Counted from the first letter of the stretch, positions 10,999 through 21,132 are shown. The stretch: DNA of 64,000 nucleotides from Pecten maximus (GCF_902652985.1 NC_047019.1:22816001-22880000), one strand, 5' to 3'. The notes: generated from the sequence alone by a model not told the origin. Numbers and translations are program-made.

Positions 10999-13735
10999 AC
11001 GGACTTTGACGAAGTTAATATAAAATTTGAATACAGTAATAATTATAATCTTTTCGAGCGAAGTTAGATTGTAATCCTTTCAATGGGAGTGGACCAGATA
11101 TATTCAGTACACTAGTACTGCAGTAAGAATTTTCGAATACGGTACCTGACTATATGCACATCCACCTGCAGAATATACACACGTGAACGAAACGTGACCT
11201 TAAATTATCCGATTCTGTAGTCCGTAGCCTTGTCTTGTCATATTAATATCAGGCGTGCTTTAATTACTAGGTCTAAACCTTGAATGAATTTGCTTGTTTT
11301 CTTTTACGTTATACATACATGTTCAGAGAGTTATTTATAATCCATATTCAGATTCAATAAAATCTCAATCCTATGATAATATAAATGTACAAAGCGTTCG
11401 ATAAGCTTTGGTTAAGCTAACGGAGCTTTAGATAATGGTGTCAAATATACCTATAGGCTATATACAGAAAAAGTCAAGGTCAGCTACAGGTAATAATAGC
11501 ACGTGATTATCAGCTTCGGGATACCCCGTCTAGCCATTGTTTGTACAACTCACAGGTGTTTTGGCAACTGCGTTATCACGGTTTATACATGTATATCATT
11601 ATAACCGGATATATACTAGTTAGGCGCTGTAGATTATTATAGTCTATATAACACACAATCATATGCTTCAAACATGGATAAATCTTAACATTTTCCAATA
11701 ATTATGATCTGCACAATGTCGGGGGTTATAATGAGAATAAGCCACTGACAATATATATTAAAATAACACAGACCTTTGGATAACATACATAATGTACCAA
11801 ATGTGTAAAATATAAGAAACATTAATGACTACGTATTTTGACGACATCGTTGTCGCTGACGATGTACGACAGAAAGAATTAGCTTGCCTAAGGGTAGTCA
11901 TTGCGTATTCCAGAGATCTGTCATTGGTTAAATATGTAAAAATATGACTAGATGCCTTTAGAAACACAAGAATGTACTATAAAGTACACTGTTAATTGCA
12001 TATTCGTGCATGATAAATAAAAGCAGAGACACATATAGACATGTAAAATTCATTGATTACCTTCGCTTCAAATACTTAGTCAACTTATTATTAAAATTAA
12101 TCGCCGAAAACACAACAATTTCTCGATACACGCGTTAGTTTACAGGCATGGTGATGAAATCAGCTGCCTGGCTGATGAAATCCTGTCTATATGTTAGCTA
12201 GAATGATTTCAGATAATTATACACAAACAATTGCCAACCATACAAAAATCAATTTAAACTGCATATATTTGTGTGTAATTCACATTACAACTAGTTCCAC
12301 TTTAAAATGCCAGACTTACCAGTACGTATATGCTGTCGATCCTGAGTCAATGTTCATTTACTTGTGAATCTGAATCCCCTGTTGTTTACAATGTGTACAC
12401 GCACGTTCTGAAATGTACATGATGTGATCATGTGTTCGCCATGTGCCTTTGTGTACATATATATATCACGTAACCTTTGACCCTGTTCCGGTAGGCTGGA
12501 CAACTCAAGCCAAATACAAGGTGACCACGCAGGGAACGCATGACCAAACTTTACCATGTACATGTATACATGCAGCTAGGTGCCCGCCAGTTGTCGGCGT
12601 GTTAGCACCACTTACGTAATTTACTAAAGGCTAAAACTGGCATGATTATCTTAATCTTTCCCTGGGTCGGAATTACACCTACAGCTTATTATAAATTCAT
12701 GTTAAGGAAAAACAGATATATAAGTAAACCTCATTGATATCCTATTGATCCTATTCAGGTCCTTAATTTGCAGTAGATAGCTATATGCAAAACTTATTTA
12801 CAAAAGTTAAATTGATATTAGAATGACTTCTTCGAGATATGCAAATTTTTATATACGTCCCTGGTAAAACTTCTCTATGAAAATATTAAGACTGTTCACA
12901 GGTTGTGCTTTCTTTTCTTTTTTCTTTTGTTGTTTTAACGTTACAATTGTGTGACACGATACAGGGGTTCCAAAATACATGTTAACTTTCCCGACTTTTT
13001 GACATTATAAACAATATATATATTACGTAAATGCCACATGGATTACATGACAGAGGGGAAGGAGAGAGCCAATTACCAGATTTTGATGATGTCATTGATC
13101 AGAAGCAATTATGACGTCATCATTTTTTGTGCTCGGTAATGGTAATGTTTTCATGTTTTATTACATTGAACTGTTTACGAAAATGTTTAGTGAGCTAATT
13201 GCTTGATCGCATTTTTTTATGCAAAAAATAATTAGGAATGGTTTTGTCACCCAGACCCCCCCCCCGAGAAATTTTGACAACCTAGTCGACCCGGACAATG
13301 TTTTTGTGACCGTACGGCCGAAAGTATTAAAAGAATTGAATTGAACCTATAGTCGCGAGTGGAGGTTATAACCAAATCGAGAGTTTAGACCGGCAACAAA
13401 ACAAAACAAATATCCTTATATGTATGGCACTACAGTACGTATTGATTAGAACAATAACATTTTATATACCATGATATATACATGTATTACTGTCTCCCAA
13501 CAACAGACATTGTATTAATGATCTACCATCCAGGGAGTGATTAATAGATTAACATATTAGGTATAAAACAAACACGAAGTTGTAAAAACGATTTGAACAT
13601 ATTGTATATGAAATAGAAAAAGAATCAATAAAAATAGAATTGTTTTGTTAATCGATAATATGCAAAATATCAAGAAGAAACACAGATTGGATTTCTCCCA
13701 TTCACAGATTTGTCTCCCGTTTTAACTGTCCAAGA

Positions 13736-13908
13736 TTTCTCTGTCAAACCCAGGATGTAATTTCTCTGTCACACCCCGGGTTTAATATCTCTGTCACACC
13801 CAGGGTATCATATCTCTGTCACACCCAAGGTATTATTTCTCTGTCACACCCAGGGTGTAATTTCTCTGTCACACATAGGGTGTAATTTCTCTGTCAACCT
13901 ATAGGGTA
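13736..13908. repeat. 25-bp tandem repeat (tttctctgtcacacccagggtgtaa) x7
   Basis: Units start at about 13736, 13761, 13786, 13811, 13836, 13861 and 13886. Confidence 0.9.
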
Positions 13909-15016
13909 TGGCATCGAACGTCTTTGCAGCAATGCAATGACGTTACGTCACCAATTCATCATGTCATTTCAGCACTGTGTTGCACTGCAAGATATTTACA
14001 TATTTTTCAAATATTTGAACTACTGAACACTGAGTAAATAGTATGACGGCGGGAAATAATAGTTCCGTACCTTGATACAATGTCAGAGAAATCTGCTAAG
14101 GACAGCTGGTGAATATAAATAAAATCTATACCTTCATTAAATGTCTAGCATCCAGAAAATGACACAAATGGTCCACGTTAATGAGAGAAGAAATATCCTC
14201 AAAAGCATAAACGGTTCATTACAGATATGTAATCAATAAAACATTGTTTAACGTTGTTAGGATGAATACAGTGCATGTTTACAACTATAACAAAATTTAT
14301 AATCCATAAGGAAATAGAATATTTCTAATTGGGATAATGATGTGGACCGTTCAACTTTGGCCGCGGTCTTAATCAACCTCGCCAAAGAAACTTACTGTAC
14401 CATTGAAATATTGTACTTTCTGGAGACTGATTTTTTCTAACCTGGTGTAAAGGTTTTTAATTATTGTTACATACATGTCACATAATCCCTTAAATATCGG
14501 TAGTCTGACATAACTCATTAAGACTGGCTTTCGTGATGGAATTGTATGTGATTTCACATATTCATATATATATCAAAGTTTAAGTCTAGTTACGAAATGC
14601 GAGTGTTTAATAGATTATCTGTGTCTGTACGTGAATCTCTCGAAGATAGGGATATACTGTTGTTACAGGTTGACGACTATATACATTATAGGTTAACACT
14701 ATTAAGTTTAAACAATATTTATTTGATAATCTGTAATACAATAAAATAAATCGAAAGTATGCAAGAGGATTTGGTAACAAGCTTAGAGCTTATGTAAAAT
14801 CGATTAACACTATTCATCACATATCAATGTCACGCCGGCACAGGTGTAATGACATTTCTTTGAAGTCACAAATATATGACGTCACACGCTTTTCTTGGTA
14901 GATTCATATCATTTTTGAGAGAAATCAATTTGAACGTTATCGCTTATTTTCTCGTGAATATGATTCATGTGATGAATAAAATCTTAAACTCGTGCCAGTA
15001 CAGTATGGGGTTTATC

Positions 15017-15953
15017 TATGGGGCGCCGTTTTACTATTTATTCCCATTTGGTGATATCGCCTATTCAAATAGGTGATATCACCTATTCAAATGAGTGATA
15101 TCACCTATTCGAATAGGTGTTATCATTTAAGAACTTTTTTAAGTGATTTCACCTATTCGAATAGGTGATATCACCTATTCGAATGAGTGATATCACCTAT
15201 TCGTTTCATTAAGTGATATCACCCATTAGAATAGGTGATATCACTTATTGAAACGAATAGGTGATATCACCAATTCGAATAGGTGATATCACTCATTCGA
15301 ATAGGTGATATCACCAATTGGAATAGGTGATATCACTTAAAAATATTCTTAGGTGATATCACCTATTCGAATAGGTGATATCACCAATTCGAATAGGTGA
15401 TATCACTTATACAATTCTTAAGTGATATCACCTATACGAATAGGTGATATCACTTATGAAATTTTATAAGTGATATCACCTATTCCAATTGGTGATATCA
15501 CCTATTCGAATGAATGATATCACCTATTCAATCAGTGATATCACCTATTCTAATAGGTGATATCACCAATTCATTTTTCAAATAAGTGATATCACCTATT
15601 CGAATTGGTGATATCACCTATTCGAATTGGTGATATCACCTATTCGTTTCAGTAAGTGATATCACCTATTCGAATGAGTGATATCACCAATTCGAATTGG
15701 TGATATCACCTATTCGTTTCAATAAGTGATATCACCTATTCGAATGAGTGATATCACCTATTCGAATGGGTGATATCACTTAATGAAACAAATAGGTGAT
15801 ATCACTTATTCGAATAGGTGATATCACTCAATCGAATAGGTGATATCACTTAAAAAAGTTCTTAAGTGATATCACCTATTCGAATAGGTGATATCACTCA
15901 TTTGAATAGGTGATATCACCAAATGGGAATAAATAGTAAAACGGCGCCCCATA
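15017..15953. mobile_element. Non-autonomous foldback/MITE-like element filled with palindromic ~22-bp subrepeats
   Basis: Long terminal inverted repeats TATGGGGCGCCGTTTTACTATTTATTCCCATTTGGTGATATC ... GATATCACCAAATGGGAATAAATAGTAAAACGGCGCCCCATA. The interior is made of dozens of ATAGGTGATATCACCTATTCGA variants. Confidence 0.85.
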
Positions 15954-15982: not shown

Positions 15983-16150
15983 TTAAATATTCCCGCGTTT
16001 CGCTTAGTATAGCGGGAATAATTTGTCTCTGTCGGCACGTAAATGCAGGTGTTGCACGTGCCTTGACGTCACAGTGGTTCACGTGTATCGGGTATACAGT
16101 GTGTGTGTCATTCCTAGCCGCCGCGCCGTACTGTACGGTTATGTCATATA
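15983..16150 (+). repeat. Split direct repeat A1 (168 bp; copy A2 at 20469-20636)
   Basis: Identical by eye to 20469-20636. Contains a tattcccgc/gcgggaata stem, a CRE (TGACGTCA) and CACGTG E-boxes. Confidence 0.95.
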
Positions 16151-16178
16151 ATTAAGCCAGTTATACTGTCCCCACATC

Positions 16179-19178
16179 ATGACGACTTCTACAGAAGATT
16201 TTATTACCGCCCGTGTGAAAGCGGCAGTGGAGGCCTCTCAGGAAGAGATTGTTTCAAAAATGAGTTCCGTCATTTCGCACAAGCAGGACAGTTTCGAACA
16301 TAGAATGAGTGACTGTTCCGAGGCCCATTTTTCCAAGTTACAGCAAAATATTTTATGTGGGGAGCCACACAAATTTTCCAGGAAAAGCTGTGAAGATCAG
16401 CACAAATTCAATGTGAAAGTTCGAGCCAAGTTAATGGAGGCGGAACATTTATCCACGACGGAACCACTAGCGTCAAAGGCTAAAATTTTGGAAGGTATTG
16501 GCCTAATTGACTATAGACAGAAACTTGTTAAACTAGCCGACACTTCGGATTGTGGATGGAAAGCTGTTGACGAATATATTGCGAATCCTATCGCTTCCGA
16601 TTCGGACGATGAGCGCAAGATGGATCGCGCCAGAGCCAGGGCCAACAGAAAGGCCAAGGATTCAAAACTAAAAGCCAATAAGGGAAGAGGTCGTTACACC
16701 CCTTATAGCGACCAACGTCTTCAATCCAATAATGCCACAGGGAATACCCAGGACGGTTTCAGAGGAGGTCCCCAAAGGAGTGCTATTAGCAGGCCGGGGA
16801 GCTGTTTTGCCTGTGGGAAGTTCGGACACTGGCGTGTCGATTGTCCTGCCCTGGCGGGAGGAACAGTGACGTCTGGCAGTATTAAGATAAGCAATATTTG
16901 GTTTACTAAACATGTACATATCGTAAATGACGATCAAGGCCGTAAGACAGACGACTCTATATTGATAGGTAAGAGTATCATTCAGTCAATGACGGACCAG
17001 TTAGGCGTCGCAAATGATTCAGGTCCTGAAGCTTATCGTTGCAGCGCAAATGATAGTTTTTCACAAACTTCACCTGTTGGCAGGTTGAAAGGTTGTTTTG
17101 ATTTTTGGGAGAGCACAGGCGCATGTGACGCTGTATTATCAGTTGTGAAGGATGGTTACAAGATTCCTTTTCGTGAAATTCCTCCTTCTGTTGTGTTAAT
17201 GAATAATAAGTCTTCACGGGATAATATCCCTTTCGTACAAGGTGAAATTGAAAAATTGGTCAAATTGGGCTGTGTTTCAGAGGTTTCATATGTACCTTTC
17301 GTTGTCAATCCTCTAACAGTAGCGTACGGTAAGTCGGGTAAGCCACGCCTCGTTCTAGATTGTCGGCATATCAATCTCTATTTGCATAAGTTCAAGGTCA
17401 AATTCGAGGACGGTAAAGTCGCTAGAGATATTTTTCAACAGGGCGATTTCTTGTTCACTTTCGACCTAAAATCGGCCTACCACCACATTGAAATTTTTGC
17501 TGATCACAGGAAGTTTCTTGGTTTTCATTACATTTTTGATAGCGTTACCCGTTATTTTGTGTTCAATGTGTTGCCTTTTGGAATAGCCACGGCCGGCTAT
17601 ATATTCACAAAGGTTCTCCGCGAGGTAGTGAAGCACGTGCGTGGTAGGGGTTACAAATTGATCATGTACCTTGACGATGGTATGGGCGGAGACGCCTCTG
17701 AAGGCGGCACTAGAGATGCCAGCGCATTTGTTATGCAGTCATTGATCAATTTTGGTTTTATTTTAGCGCACGAGAAGTGTCAGTGGACACCATCACAATA
17801 CGCCACGTGGTTAGGGTACACGTGGTCGATGTCTGTAGGCGTGGTCAGGGTATCGTCTGCTAGAGTAGAGCTATTGTTGGGTCAACTGTCTGACATCATG
17901 ACTCGGGTCAATGAGAAAGGTCACTATATGTTTCCTGCTAGGTATCTCGCCGGCGTAATAGGGCGTGTCATATCAATGCAAAGCGTGATCGGTTCAGTGG
18001 CGCGTTTACGCACACGTGAGTTGTATAAATGTGTATTGTCCAGGTCTAGTTGGAATGCGTACGTCATACTCAGTAGTGAGGCTCTAGAAGAAATAGCATT
18101 TTGGTCGTTGAACATTGAGAAACTGAACGAGAAAGGCTGTACTATCAAAGAAAACAGTTTTTGCAGTTCAATCGTTTGTACTGACGCGTCCGGTATTGGT
18201 TACGGGGGCTATGTTATGCCCTGTAAGAGTCCTTTGGAGGATGTTGTTGTCGATGTAGGTCAAGGTGATTACGTCGCAGATAATGACTTAGATGATTTGG
18301 CCCCATGGGCGGGATTCCCTTTGGAGGGACAAGTTTGTATGGGCGATGCCCCATGTTTCTGTTTGCCTTTGGAGGATTTGTCAAATGAGGTCAGGGCCCC
18401 TTTGGAGGGGACTTGTGAAAAATCAAGTGTTATAACGGGCACTTGGAGTGAGGATGAAAGGGTACGTAGCTCAACCTGGAGGGAGCTTGAAGGTATGAAG
18501 CGCGTCCTGTTTAGCGCTGTTGATGATATAAAAAGTCAGCACGTAAGACTGGTTACTGACAATAAGAATGTAGCCTCCATTCTTAAGGTAGGTAGTAGAA
18601 AACCCAATCTTCAAGCAGTAGCTTGTGAGGTAGTGGATTTTTGTGAGAATCACGGTGTAAGTATCAGTACTCAATGGATACCCAGACAGTTGAACAAAAC
18701 TGCAGATTGTTTGAGCAGATGTACGGATGCCGACGATTGGTCGGTTCAAAGGTGGGTTTTTGATTTTTGTGAAGTGTTATGGGAGCAGCACGATGTAGAT
18801 AGATTCTCTACAGATTATAACACAATGTGTGACAGATTTAACTCGCGCTTTTGGTGCACGGGTACTGAAGCGGTAGATTGTCTCACTGTATCATGGGGTC
18901 GGCTAAACAACTGGATAGTACCTCCCCCCAGGTTAATATGTAAGGTCATTGAAAAGATGTCAAAGGAACGGTGCCGTGGTACTCTGATAGCCCCTGTTTG
19001 GAGGTCTGCTCCATTTTGGCCTATTCTGTGTTTAAGCGAGAATAGATTCGACAGTTTTGTCGTGGATAACCGAGTATTGTCGAATAAGAATGTTACAAAA
19101 AAGGGTAGGGGTAAAAACGGCGTTTTTGGCAGAACCGTTTTACCCTTTGCCATGATCGCATTGCGTTTAGTTTTCTAA
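16179..19178 (+). CDS. Gag-RT-RNase H-DNA N6-adenine methyltransferase-like polyprotein (999 aa)
   Basis: Zinc knuckle CFACGKFGHWRVDC. RT motifs RLVLDCR, FDLKSAYHH, LPFG and YLDD. RNase H motifs TDAS, SSTWRELE, TDN and WIPRQLNKTAD. The C-terminal DIRS MT-like region includes DVDRF and WIVPPP. Confidence 0.95.
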   Translation: MTTSTEDFITARVKAAVEASQEEIVSKMSSVISHKQDSFEHRMSDCSEAHFSKLQQNILCGEPHKFSRKSCEDQHKFNVKVRAKLMEAEHLSTTEPLASKAKILEGIGLIDYRQKLVKLADTSDCGWKAVDEYIANPIASDSDDERKMDRARARANRKAKDSKLKANKGRGRYTPYSDQRLQSNNATGNTQDGFRGGPQRSAISRPGSCFACGKFGHWRVDCPALAGGTVTSGSIKISNIWFTKHVHIVNDDQGRKTDDSILIGKSIIQSMTDQLGVANDSGPEAYRCSANDSFSQTSPVGRLKGCFDFWESTGACDAVLSVVKDGYKIPFREIPPSVVLMNNKSSRDNIPFVQGEIEKLVKLGCVSEVSYVPFVVNPLTVAYGKSGKPRLVLDCRHINLYLHKFKVKFEDGKVARDIFQQGDFLFTFDLKSAYHHIEIFADHRKFLGFHYIFDSVTRYFVFNVLPFGIATAGYIFTKVLREVVKHVRGRGYKLIMYLDDGMGGDASEGGTRDASAFVMQSLINFGFILAHEKCQWTPSQYATWLGYTWSMSVGVVRVSSARVELLLGQLSDIMTRVNEKGHYMFPARYLAGVIGRVISMQSVIGSVARLRTRELYKCVLSRSSWNAYVILSSEALEEIAFWSLNIEKLNEKGCTIKENSFCSSIVCTDASGIGYGGYVMPCKSPLEDVVVDVGQGDYVADNDLDDLAPWAGFPLEGQVCMGDAPCFCLPLEDLSNEVRAPLEGTCEKSSVITGTWSEDERVRSSTWRELEGMKRVLFSAVDDIKSQHVRLVTDNKNVASILKVGSRKPNLQAVACEVVDFCENHGVSISTQWIPRQLNKTADCLSRCTDADDWSVQRWVFDFCEVLWEQHDVDRFSTDYNTMCDRFNSRFWCTGTEAVDCLTVSWGRLNNWIVPPPRLICKVIEKMSKERCRGTLIAPVWRSAPFWPILCLSENRFDSFVVDNRVLSNKNVTKKGRGKNGVFGRTVLPFAMIALRLVF

Positions 19179-19229
19179 ACCGGGTTATTTTTCACACACG
19201 TATATATATATTTGTTATTTGTTTAACAG

Positions 19230-20242
19230 GCATAGGACTACATACCACAATCGACCAAGCGATTAAGGACTCGGGCGTTGTAGAAGGTTCTTCACTGCAT
19301 AAACACGTCGTCGGTTTAAAGAGCAGGATACTTCAGTGCAAGAGTGACAGCACGAACTATAAATACTTCGGTGCTTTTAAACGATGGGAGCGTTTCATAA
19401 CAGCGCAGGGATTTCCGGCAGTACCAGCCAATTCCATACACATATGTTTGTACCTGAACAGCTTATTAACTAAAGGATCCTCATTTGCAGTGGTTTCTTC
19501 GGCAGTGTATGCTATCAAGTGGGCTCATAGCTTGAACGGATTGTCGGATCCAACAACAAACATTTTTGTAAAAAATCTTTTAGAAGCTTCAAAACGCATA
19601 GCGAAGAAACCTGTGTGTAAAAAGGACTCTGTTACCAGTGGCATTTTGATTAGGCTTTGTGACATTTTTTCAGAATCTAGCGACTTGTTAGTTGTCAGGG
19701 ATTTAACCATGATTTTGCTTAGCTTTTCAGGATTTTTGCGCTATAACGAGCTCAGCAATTTGCATTGTTCAGATGTTAAGCTATCGGAGAGCTATTTCAC
19801 ACTTGTAGTCCGTAAGAGTAAAACGGACCAATATCGGTTCGGCAGTGAGATTATTATCAGTAAGGGTGAAACTACGGCGTGTCCGTACGCCATGTTGATG
19901 AAATATATTCGTATAGCTCGCATTGACATCGAGTCAGATGATTTCTTGTTTAAACCAATTTATAGATCGGGCTCAGTTTGTGGTTTGATTCACAAAAATA
20001 AACCGCTCAGTTACACGGGAGCTAAGGAAGCTATCCTGAAACGGCTGAATTTGGTTTCGGAGGGAAAGAATTTCGGTTTACATTCTTTGGGATCAGGAGG
20101 GGCCAGCATGGCGGCCAACAATGGCGTTAATGATCGCTGTTTTAAGCGCCACGGGCGTTGGCGTAGTGAGTCTAGCAAGGACGGATACATCGCTGATTCT
20201 ATCGAGAGACGGTTAAATGTGACGCAAAAATTAGGTATCTGA
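19230..20242 (+). CDS. Tyrosine recombinase of the retrotransposon (probably a spliced second exon; HxxR Arg mutated)
   Basis: The frame is open from the acceptor at 19229 to the stop at 20242. Catalytic motifs: FLRYNEL (R), KSKTDQ (K), HSLG (HxxR changed to HxxG), HGRW and DGYI (Y). The ORF-track start at 19448 is a TTG, and the first in-frame ATG is far downstream. Confidence 0.9.
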
Positions 20243-20398
20243 AATCAAAATATATACAGGCAGTTAAACGTGACGCCTAATGTTTTAGACATCGCGTGTG
20301 TTGTATACGACGTATTCACTTAGTTATTTAGGATAACTATACACGTTTGATATATATATATATATATTTTCTACTCGTACTTTCCCCTTTCTTTGTTA

Positions 20399-20468
20399 TT
20401 CCTATACACGGCGGGCTAGTCGGCAAATGGAATTTGCGTGTTTGGTGTTGTATTAGTATAGAGGAGAC
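20399..20468 (+). repeat. Split direct repeat B1 (70 bp; copy B2 at 20959-21028)
   Basis: ttcctatacacggcgggctag...gaggagac is identical at both positions. B1 directly abuts A2, reproducing the circle junction. Confidence 0.95.
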
Positions 20469-21132
20469 TTAAATATTCCCGCGTTTCGCTTAGTATAGCG
20501 GGAATAATTTGTCTCTGTCGGCACGTAAATGCAGGTGTTGCACGTGCCTTGACGTCACAGTGGTTCACGTGTATCGGGTATACAGTGTGTGTGTCATTCC
20601 TAGCCGCCGCGCCGTACTGTACGGTTATGTCATATACTTTTTCTGTGTAGTTATATGATTTCTAGTGTCAATGCTGTCACAGTAGTTCATATTTGTCTGG
20701 CCTATAAATCCAGCATATGAAATCTTAAGCATTGAGGGCTGGTGCACCTCCTGCTCTCCCGTAAGACAGGAGTTTCAGGTTGGGTGGCTCGCTTGATTTC
20801 ACATAGGCCATATAGGGTTAAAGTTCAGGCTAGTTTTAGGTCAATGTTATCATAGGGATGATTTCGGTGTTCCTTTAGATTTGGCTATTCATTTCGCATC
20901 AATGTATTTGTATCATATGAAATTGGCATGAATGTTGCTTTTCTGAATAAATTCCGGCTTCCTATACACGGCGGGCTAGTCGGCAAATGGAATTTGCGTG
21001 TTTGGTGTTGTATTAGTATAGAGGAGACATATCAACTTCTTGACACCACGAAAAGATACTCTATATTCTGATAACAACATCTAAATGTATCATAAACAGT
21101 GAGCAAGTGAACAGCATATTAAAATATTAATT

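Follow-up and report, generated by a model that had tools for sequence, protein, structure and literature searches.

Four identical predicted hairpins in the RNase H frame of a Pecten maximus PAT-like retrotransposon, a candidate accessory mark of unspliced RNA for Gag

An intact PAT-like tyrosine-recombinase retrotransposon of the order DIRS occupies 15983-21031 of a 64,000-nt stretch of Pecten maximus DNA (GCF_902652985.1 NC_047019.1:22816001-22880000, hereafter the window), and four copies of one decamer stand in the reading frame of its RNase H (Table 1). Comparisons between families of related elements argue that this motif is constrained at the level of nucleotides and hairpin pairing, and not as the PLE peptide that it encodes. 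We give a probability of about 0.45 to the reading in which the array would act as an accessory tag on unspliced RNA, bound by the zinc knuckle of Gag.

Exact matches to CCTTTGGAGG were found at the four positions of Table 1 and nowhere else in the window. Spacers between them are 77, 38 and 23 nt long, and translation of the ORF reads all four as PLE[D/G]; the identical decamers, unlike spacers and shared frame described by the sequence-only reading were thus confirmed. At 1015 occurrences in 918 Mb of genome, the decamer is expected only ~0.07 times per 64 kb, so that four copies within 178 nt are not a chance event. Paired flanks extend copies 1, 2 and 4, the three copies for which they had been claimed, and none were found at copy 3.

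Table 1. Features of the element, with positions counted from the first letter of the window
Feature	Position	Strand	Basis or remark
Split direct repeat A1, left element end	15983..16153	+	99% identical to 20469-20639
Gag-pol fused ORF (Gag, CCHC knuckle, RT, RNase H, MT-like)	16179..19178	+	999 aa from ATG
Single CCHC zinc knuckle of Gag	16803..16844	+	zf-CCHC E 6e-4, slightly under curated cut-off
Likely intron holding all of pol and the array	16887..19229	+	AT(AAGY) donor, polypyrimidine-CAG acceptor
RNase H linker, 75 aa (~65 aa insert)	18214..18438	+	predicted disordered, between two core strands
Hairpin copy 1, gtCCT-TTGG-AGGat, 5 bp	18231..18240	+	U-A becomes C-G relative to family B
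Hairpin copy 2, tcCCT-TTGG-AGGga, 5 bp	18318..18327	+	predicted fold
Hairpin copy 3, 3 bp here, 4 bp in family B	18366..18375	+	predicted fold
Hairpin copy 4, ccCCT-TTGG-AGGgg, 5 bp	18399..18408	+	predicted fold
Dam-like methyltransferase domain	18726..18965	+	PF05869 E 4e-4, below curated cut-off
Tyrosine recombinase (YR) reading frame	19229..20242	+	PF00589 E 3e-5, below curated cut-off
Adjacent repeats B1 (20399-20471) and A2 (20469-20639)	20399..20639	+	direct-repeat comparison
Repeat B2, right element end	20959..21031	+	99% identical to B1

The element is ordered A1-ORFs-B1-A2-B2, with split direct repeats. Its gag and pol form one ORF of 1008 aa from stop to stop, which contains a knuckle of C-X2-C-X4-H-X4-C spacing and a clear RT match (RVT_1 of Pfam, E 2e-14), and the motifs DAS, WREL and TDN are present in its proteins. 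The AlphaFold model of this ORF (99 sequences) has a mean pLDDT of 83; confidence is high in the core of RNase H and low in the insert. PF05869 is listed also for many homologues, and the closest named relatives are scallop proteins. According to the accessible text of PMC3266345 and PMC7192593, PAT elements combine split direct repeats with a methyltransferase that is missing from Ngaro; here split direct repeats accompany RT, RNase H and YR, and an MT-like domain follows RNase H. The wider set of defining features (split repeats, gag with CCHC, RT, RNase H, MT-like domain and YR; PMC3266345, PMC7192593 and PMC3783388, accessible text) is present as well, and compared with PAT-like elements three features are the element's own, namely the fusion of gag and pol into a single ORF, the 65-aa insert in RNase H and a likely Gag-terminating intron with an AT donor. 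The earlier comparison with DIRS has to be corrected in that the element is PAT-like and not DIRS1-like, from the split direct repeats and the methyltransferase-like domain. A DIRS1-like identity was rejected because the termini are direct repeats, not inverted repeats with an internal complementary region, and the 25 longest inverted repeats all lie inside a satellite upstream of the element. This palindromic satellite (15042-15931, immediately upstream) consists of GTGATATCAC units of ~22 nt in inverted blocks, and a 25-nt minisatellite of at least six copies lies at 13710-13909.

Family A, to which the window element belongs, has seven genomic copies at 97-100% identity. All four decamers are present in four of them, two stop-containing copies carry a T-T-A variant at copy 2, and one is without hairpin copy 1 through a deletion. 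The sister family B (79% amino-acid identity; two copies, 72-73% over the insert region) has 4/4 decamers exact, although its first two spacers are shorter (65 and 32 nt; the third is again 23 nt). In the sequence beyond the insert, 111/195 four-fold sites are common to A and B (~43% four-fold divergence), and identical residues use the same codon in 8/15 cases for P, 22/43 for L and 18/25 for E. By arithmetic from these codon-sharing rates, the 12/12 codons kept in the PLE motifs have a chance of ~0.0015. The claim that all synonymous PLE positions are fixed was therefore borne out by family B, whose decamers are exact despite its diverged four-fold sites.

These data bear directly on the idea that a tandem duplication has decayed where the protein tolerates it and is kept by chance or as a PLE peptide motif, to which we give little credence and which is largely ruled out already. 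Duplication is visible in the 28-nt units at 18300 and 18348, which are 75% alike; recent repeats occur in the related proteins P0001, P0009 and P0117, the insert is predicted to be disordered and many relatives have none. However, decay would not fix synonymous sites across families of such four-fold divergence, nor would it produce compensatory changes, one of which, the U-A to C-G exchange at copy 1 between A and B, comes at the cost of Asp to Gly. One loop of a second lineage, read both as PEV and as PGSE, speaks against a peptide as well.

The stems themselves vary in a paired manner. In 8/9 copies the base directly before the decamer, which is free to vary as a third codon position, is complementary to the base directly after it; covariation of the outer flanks is marginal for the exact decamer alone (p 0.054), and for the wider motif of 11 copies it reaches p 0.006. 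Family F (60% aa) carries the exact decamer, a version with an ATGG loop and, on a stem of 7 bp, the compensated form CCTT-TTGG-AAGG. In an alignment of 14 copies from five families, one row of which (D1) was picked for its hairpin look, 91.4% of cells are paired against 77.6 +/- 3.3 after shuffling (0/500), and both pairing and the covariation score lie above every one of the 500 shuffles and every slid control. In this alignment the count of pairs with changes on both sides does not exceed shuffles (66/500), a point against the Gag tag. Hence, the stem covariation proposed earlier stands across the 14 copies and the wider motif and is marginal for the exact decamer alone. Freely varying PLE codons and absence of stem covariation were both looked for and neither was seen, and exact conservation between families together with stem covariation upholds the earlier view in so far as constraint acts on nucleotides and hairpin pairing rather than on peptide.

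Complementary flanks also make it very improbable that a transcription factor binds the repeats as double-stranded DNA, in an internal enhancer or YR promoter. Such a factor gives no reason for flanks that vary yet remain complementary, or for stems kept by GGAG loop variants, and the decamer is barely enriched in the genome (1015 occurrences against 847 for the reversed control). It would agree with a near-palindromic decamer and with the internal promoter signals that split-repeat elements would need; CCGGAAGTG of the relatives, which we take to resemble an ETS site, was also counted on its side. Minisatellite decamers were considered separately as a sign of a DNA-binding motif and rejected, with 8 arrays against 8 places for the reversed control.

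Thermodynamic support for the tag is weak in the window. Stability of the array region is ordinary (z -1.31; single hairpins z -0.97 to +0.23), and copy 3 barely folds, at only -1.3 kcal/mol. Local pairing probabilities of copies 1-4 are 0.97, 0.77, 0.02 and 0.99, and become 0.10, 0.36, 0.00 and 0.97 with long-range pairs permitted; in the global MFE, copy 1 pairs with copy 3 in place of their own hairpins. A CUUU:GGAG wobble helix is predicted between copies through G-U pairs, and such a copy-to-copy duplex could be the bound form or could help dimer formation. It resembles the HIV-1 [UUUU]:[GGAG] nucleocapsid site (PMC7599994, accessible text), a likeness that we treat as a lead only. Rfam gave no family at gathering level for the array region, with one chance-level match (malK-II, E 0.12). 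Right before copy 2, at 18300-18315, lies a possible extra hairpin, CCC-ATGGGC-GGG or GCCC-CAT-GGGC, which is kept in family B.

The array sits in an unusually long RNase H linker, and the length stated beforehand, 75 aa from GYGGY to GTW, was found to be correct. In the AlphaFold model, pLDDT is <50 at residues 686-729 and 733-743, between strands at 674-681 and 750-755. We gathered 181 related proteins, of which 167 have a measurable linker (95 short, 72 long); DAS-to-SSTWRE spacing is 95-96 aa here vs <=40 aa (mostly ~31) in the 95. Among the 72 long-linker proteins, PEV repeats occur in 30, PLE in 4 and PGSE in 1, and hairpin arrays would account for the hypervariable RNase H inserts of these 72/167 proteins. 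The RNase H inserts of P0150, P0003 and P0113 carry the peptide repeats SP.GAQV.G, PQG and LTE, possibly further loop types. The loop that bears the insert is likely dispensable. In a FastTree phylogeny the scallop clade has a support of 0.997, and the long-insert clade with the PEV proteins joins 11 insert-less tips with 0.998. Since the PEV-bearing clade groups with insert-less tips, this tree, with weak deep nodes (0.17-0.61), suggests separate gains of the insert in the scallop and PEV lineages. No match came from metagenomes when the RNase H piece of the window served as query, nor from viral contigs, and a GTDB scan gave one locus, which is insert-less.

PEV-type DNA was obtained as five elements from metagenome contigs. 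What recurs in them is a loop of 8 nt, in most cases CCGGAAGY, whose stems differ widely in sequence. When the loop pattern YYGGADRH was selected by sequence only, 19/23 unique flank pairs gave >=4 bp vs 4.3 when permuted, and 10/138 did so outside inserts. All six stem pairs vary on both sides (32 rows, one misaligned), loop positions 5-8 are also conserved, and in one element (L113) the loop appears in two reading frames; its translation in this lineage is PEV or PGSE. Both RNase H lineages share GG as the third and fourth loop bases, and the bivalve CCGGAAGY lineage likely acquired its insert separately. Across 28 hairpins, internal wobble positions on the sense strand number 7 for G-U and 0 for A-C, which favours sense RNA as the acting form; the excess is modest (~p 0.035 by arithmetic from insert composition), and this too weakens the Gag tag.

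Strand asymmetry is also what tells against a role of the hairpins in single-stranded cDNA (RT, circularisation, recombinase), since the wobbles are G-U and not A-C on the sense strand while the known cDNA, that of DIRS-1, is antisense (PMC7192593, accessible text). The same text describes this cDNA as linear and single-stranded, and 3/4 hairpins here fold at similar energy on the antisense strand. As for a protein-free RNA dimerisation palindrome, two decamers could form a duplex along all 10 nt with the help of G-U pairs, and the MFE pairs copies 1 and 3; yet a full duplex is impossible for the variant loops AUGG, UUUG and CCGGAAGU. We hold both possibilities together to be improbable.

Arrays are also found outside RNase H. 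In some insert-less relatives, arrays with loops GTGGG, TGTGT, ACTG and TCTG(T/A) stand directly after the pol stop, and in one scan of such a gap array 0/100 shuffles produced an array. All of these loci (L260 at G000:C5:3565500-3571300, L121-L123, L152 and L142) are insert-less and bear the array in the non-coding gap between pol and YR. Loops differ by lineage: UUGG in families A, B and F, UGUGU in L260 of the same genome, and GUGGG, ACUG and UCUG(U/A) in metagenome relatives. From 37 elements with both ends found, 7 without a measurable linker were dropped. Among the remaining 30, the pol-YR gap is compact in 9/10 insert-bearing elements, the tenth being a broken copy, and long in 12/20 insert-less ones, leaving 8/20 with neither insert nor long gap.

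Arrays exceed their 12 shuffles in 12/30 elements, one of which, L257, probably does so by chance. No array above shuffles was found in 18/30, among them the open-frame families C, D, E and L256; family F is counted among the 18, although its copies are too varied for that scan. Over the 30 elements, with multi-copy open-frame families among these 18, the array appears recurrent and not obligatory. Absence in the 18, the 8/20 elements without long gap, and knuckle-bearing families without any array all count against the Gag tag. Array-less internal deletions (L294, L295, L296 and L299) have their own breakpoints each, with no sign of amplification; the 40/153 candidates scored included no non-autonomous derivative that had multiplied. 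In another deletion form, L241 (G000:C15:21372219-21376689), 17736-18313 is replaced by 16 nt and hairpins 2-4 are retained, and this form dominates runs X6 and X16. Families A and B have also left many solo A-spacer-B remnants elsewhere in the genome (L294-L308), which are comparable to solo LTRs and likely arose by recombination between A1 and A2.

Contigs that join 16886 to 19230 (equally 16884/19228, with 2 letters of slack) occur in 3/8 runs (X2, X15 and X17, from two studies), whose status as RNA is guessed or of unknown kind, a point that also lowers the Gag tag. None of the seven genomic copies lacks the 16887-19229 stretch. Since the joint removes this region, the array likely lies in an intron, and the sequence-only reading that only unspliced RNA carries it is supported by the contigs of these runs. 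Unspliced RNA would then likely serve as gag-pol mRNA and genome and be the sole carrier of the array. As a correction, the observed joint yields no Gag-YR fusion: it uses a non-canonical AT donor at 16887 (AAG-ATAAGT; ATAAGC in the window copy) and the joined form encodes Gag-K-A-stop. The two sides of the joint fall in 16884-16892 and 19220-19235. Right after the knuckle, the conserved donor AAG-AT(A/G)AGT is found in 6/7 family A copies and 10/15 other knuckle-bearing elements, and K[IML]S follows the knuckle in 85/104 proteins vs 31/3260 background windows. This donor could set the ratio of Gag to Gag-Pol. Splicing from either of two canonical phase-1 donors (GTAAGA) at 16942 and 16969 would produce a fusion of Gag with the recombinase, in whose frame no ATG occurs early on, and similar donors exist in families B, C, D and L256; joints from 16942 and 16969 were not seen in the contigs of the 8 runs, which could miss them.

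We propose that the four hairpins are repeated landing sites for the zinc knuckle of the element's own Gag, and that this contact would favour unspliced RNA for packaging and reverse transcription. The array may have arisen by in-frame tandem duplication, after which spacers drifted and stem and loop were kept. It would have settled in a surface loop of RNase H because only ~50 nt separate pol from the YR acceptor in this lineage, whereas some relatives may hold it in a long pol-YR gap. Since many relatives have no array, it would be an accessory booster and not an obligatory psi. All lineage loops expose G in GG or UG steps, and exposed G is what the knuckles of retroviruses bind, be it in loops GGAG and GGUG, in UCUG or in the [UUUU]:[GGAG] wobble helix (PMC7599994, accessible text).

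A host RNA-binding protein that reads the hairpins for export, stability or non-splicing of intron-retaining RNA, like HBV PRE/ZCCHC14-TENT4 or a Smaug-type SAM domain, is in our judgement the main rival, less likely than the Gag tag, and has several points in its favour. GG at loop positions 3-4 is shared by both RNase H lineages, and arrays occupy the intron's 3' portion or directly precede its acceptor. CCGGAAGY agrees with CNGGN0-4, the Smaug consensus, for which the stem is non-specific, and SREs function in multiples within ORFs (both from the accessible text of PMC4053848); but the loop here is UUGG or AUGG, without the invariant C1, and GUGGG, UGUGU and ACUG of the gap arrays fall outside CNGG. 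Moreover, positions 5-8 of CCGGAAGY are conserved, yet Vts1 makes no contact with the 3' loop part (PMC4053848, accessible text); no paper on tolerance of Vts1 for U at loop position 1 was found. HBV offers a precedent in which a CAGGU loop serves stability and export of unspliced RNA (PMC11055085 and PMC2275152, accessible text). Because loops differ by lineage within one genome, a reader encoded by the element, presumably Gag, would fit better than one host protein.

More tentatively than the Gag tag itself, we suggest that elements of the order DIRS may pick their genomic RNA with modular, movable hairpin arrays whose loop code co-evolves with the single Gag knuckle of each lineage. In this scheme the RNase H loop would have been invaded at least twice in compact bivalve PAT-like lineages, the PLE, PEV and PGSE repeats in many annotated bivalve proteins would be translated packaging signals, and the conserved AT donor would divide transcripts into Gag mRNA and genome.

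In the openly accessible literature searched, neither a hairpin array or packaging signal in DIRS-order elements nor a description of how tyrosine-recombinase retrotransposons choose genomic RNA was found; the insert might be visible in alignments that supplement DIRS surveys. Hairpin, intron and splicing are unmentioned in the accessible text of PMC3266345, as are splicing in that of PMC3783388 and packaging in that of PMC7192593. What is new here is the invasion of the RNase H coding frame by arrays in two lineages, the frame independence of loops, the strand asymmetry and the evidence that the array may be optional. With defined loops, variable stems and lineage loop codes, arrays offer a small natural candidate for genomic RNA choice, and since loop codes differ between lineages, the arrays lend themselves readily to binding tests in which loops are swapped between cognate knuckles. 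They would also represent an RNA signal able to move between a non-coding gap and the surface loop of an enzyme.

Smaug elements and HBV PRE SL-alpha share with the arrays non-specific stems, GG at loop positions 3-4 and multiple copies inside an ORF. Only the CCGGAAGY lineage fits CNGGN4; the array here has a UUGG tetraloop starting with U, unlike the Smaug consensus CNGGN0-4 on a >=4-bp stem, and the gap arrays of relatives misfit it too. The CNGGN pentaloop of the ZCCHC14/TENT4 PRE likewise differs from a tetraloop here and an 8-nt loop in the other lineage. Retroviral psi lies in the 5' leader near the major donor, whereas the array is ~2.2 kb into the element and 1.3 kb past the donor, inside the RNase H frame, a distance that argues against the Gag tag; its units are identical and repeated, it is absent from many relatives, and its binding or packaging role is a candidate one. 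As in psi (HIV-1 SL2, SL3 and [UUUU]:[GGAG]; MoMuLV UCUG), several small hairpins expose G, their structure being indicated by covariation and by predicted folding that is weak for copy 3, and here too the signal is limited to unspliced RNA, according to the contig joint, in an element that encodes a CCHC knuckle.
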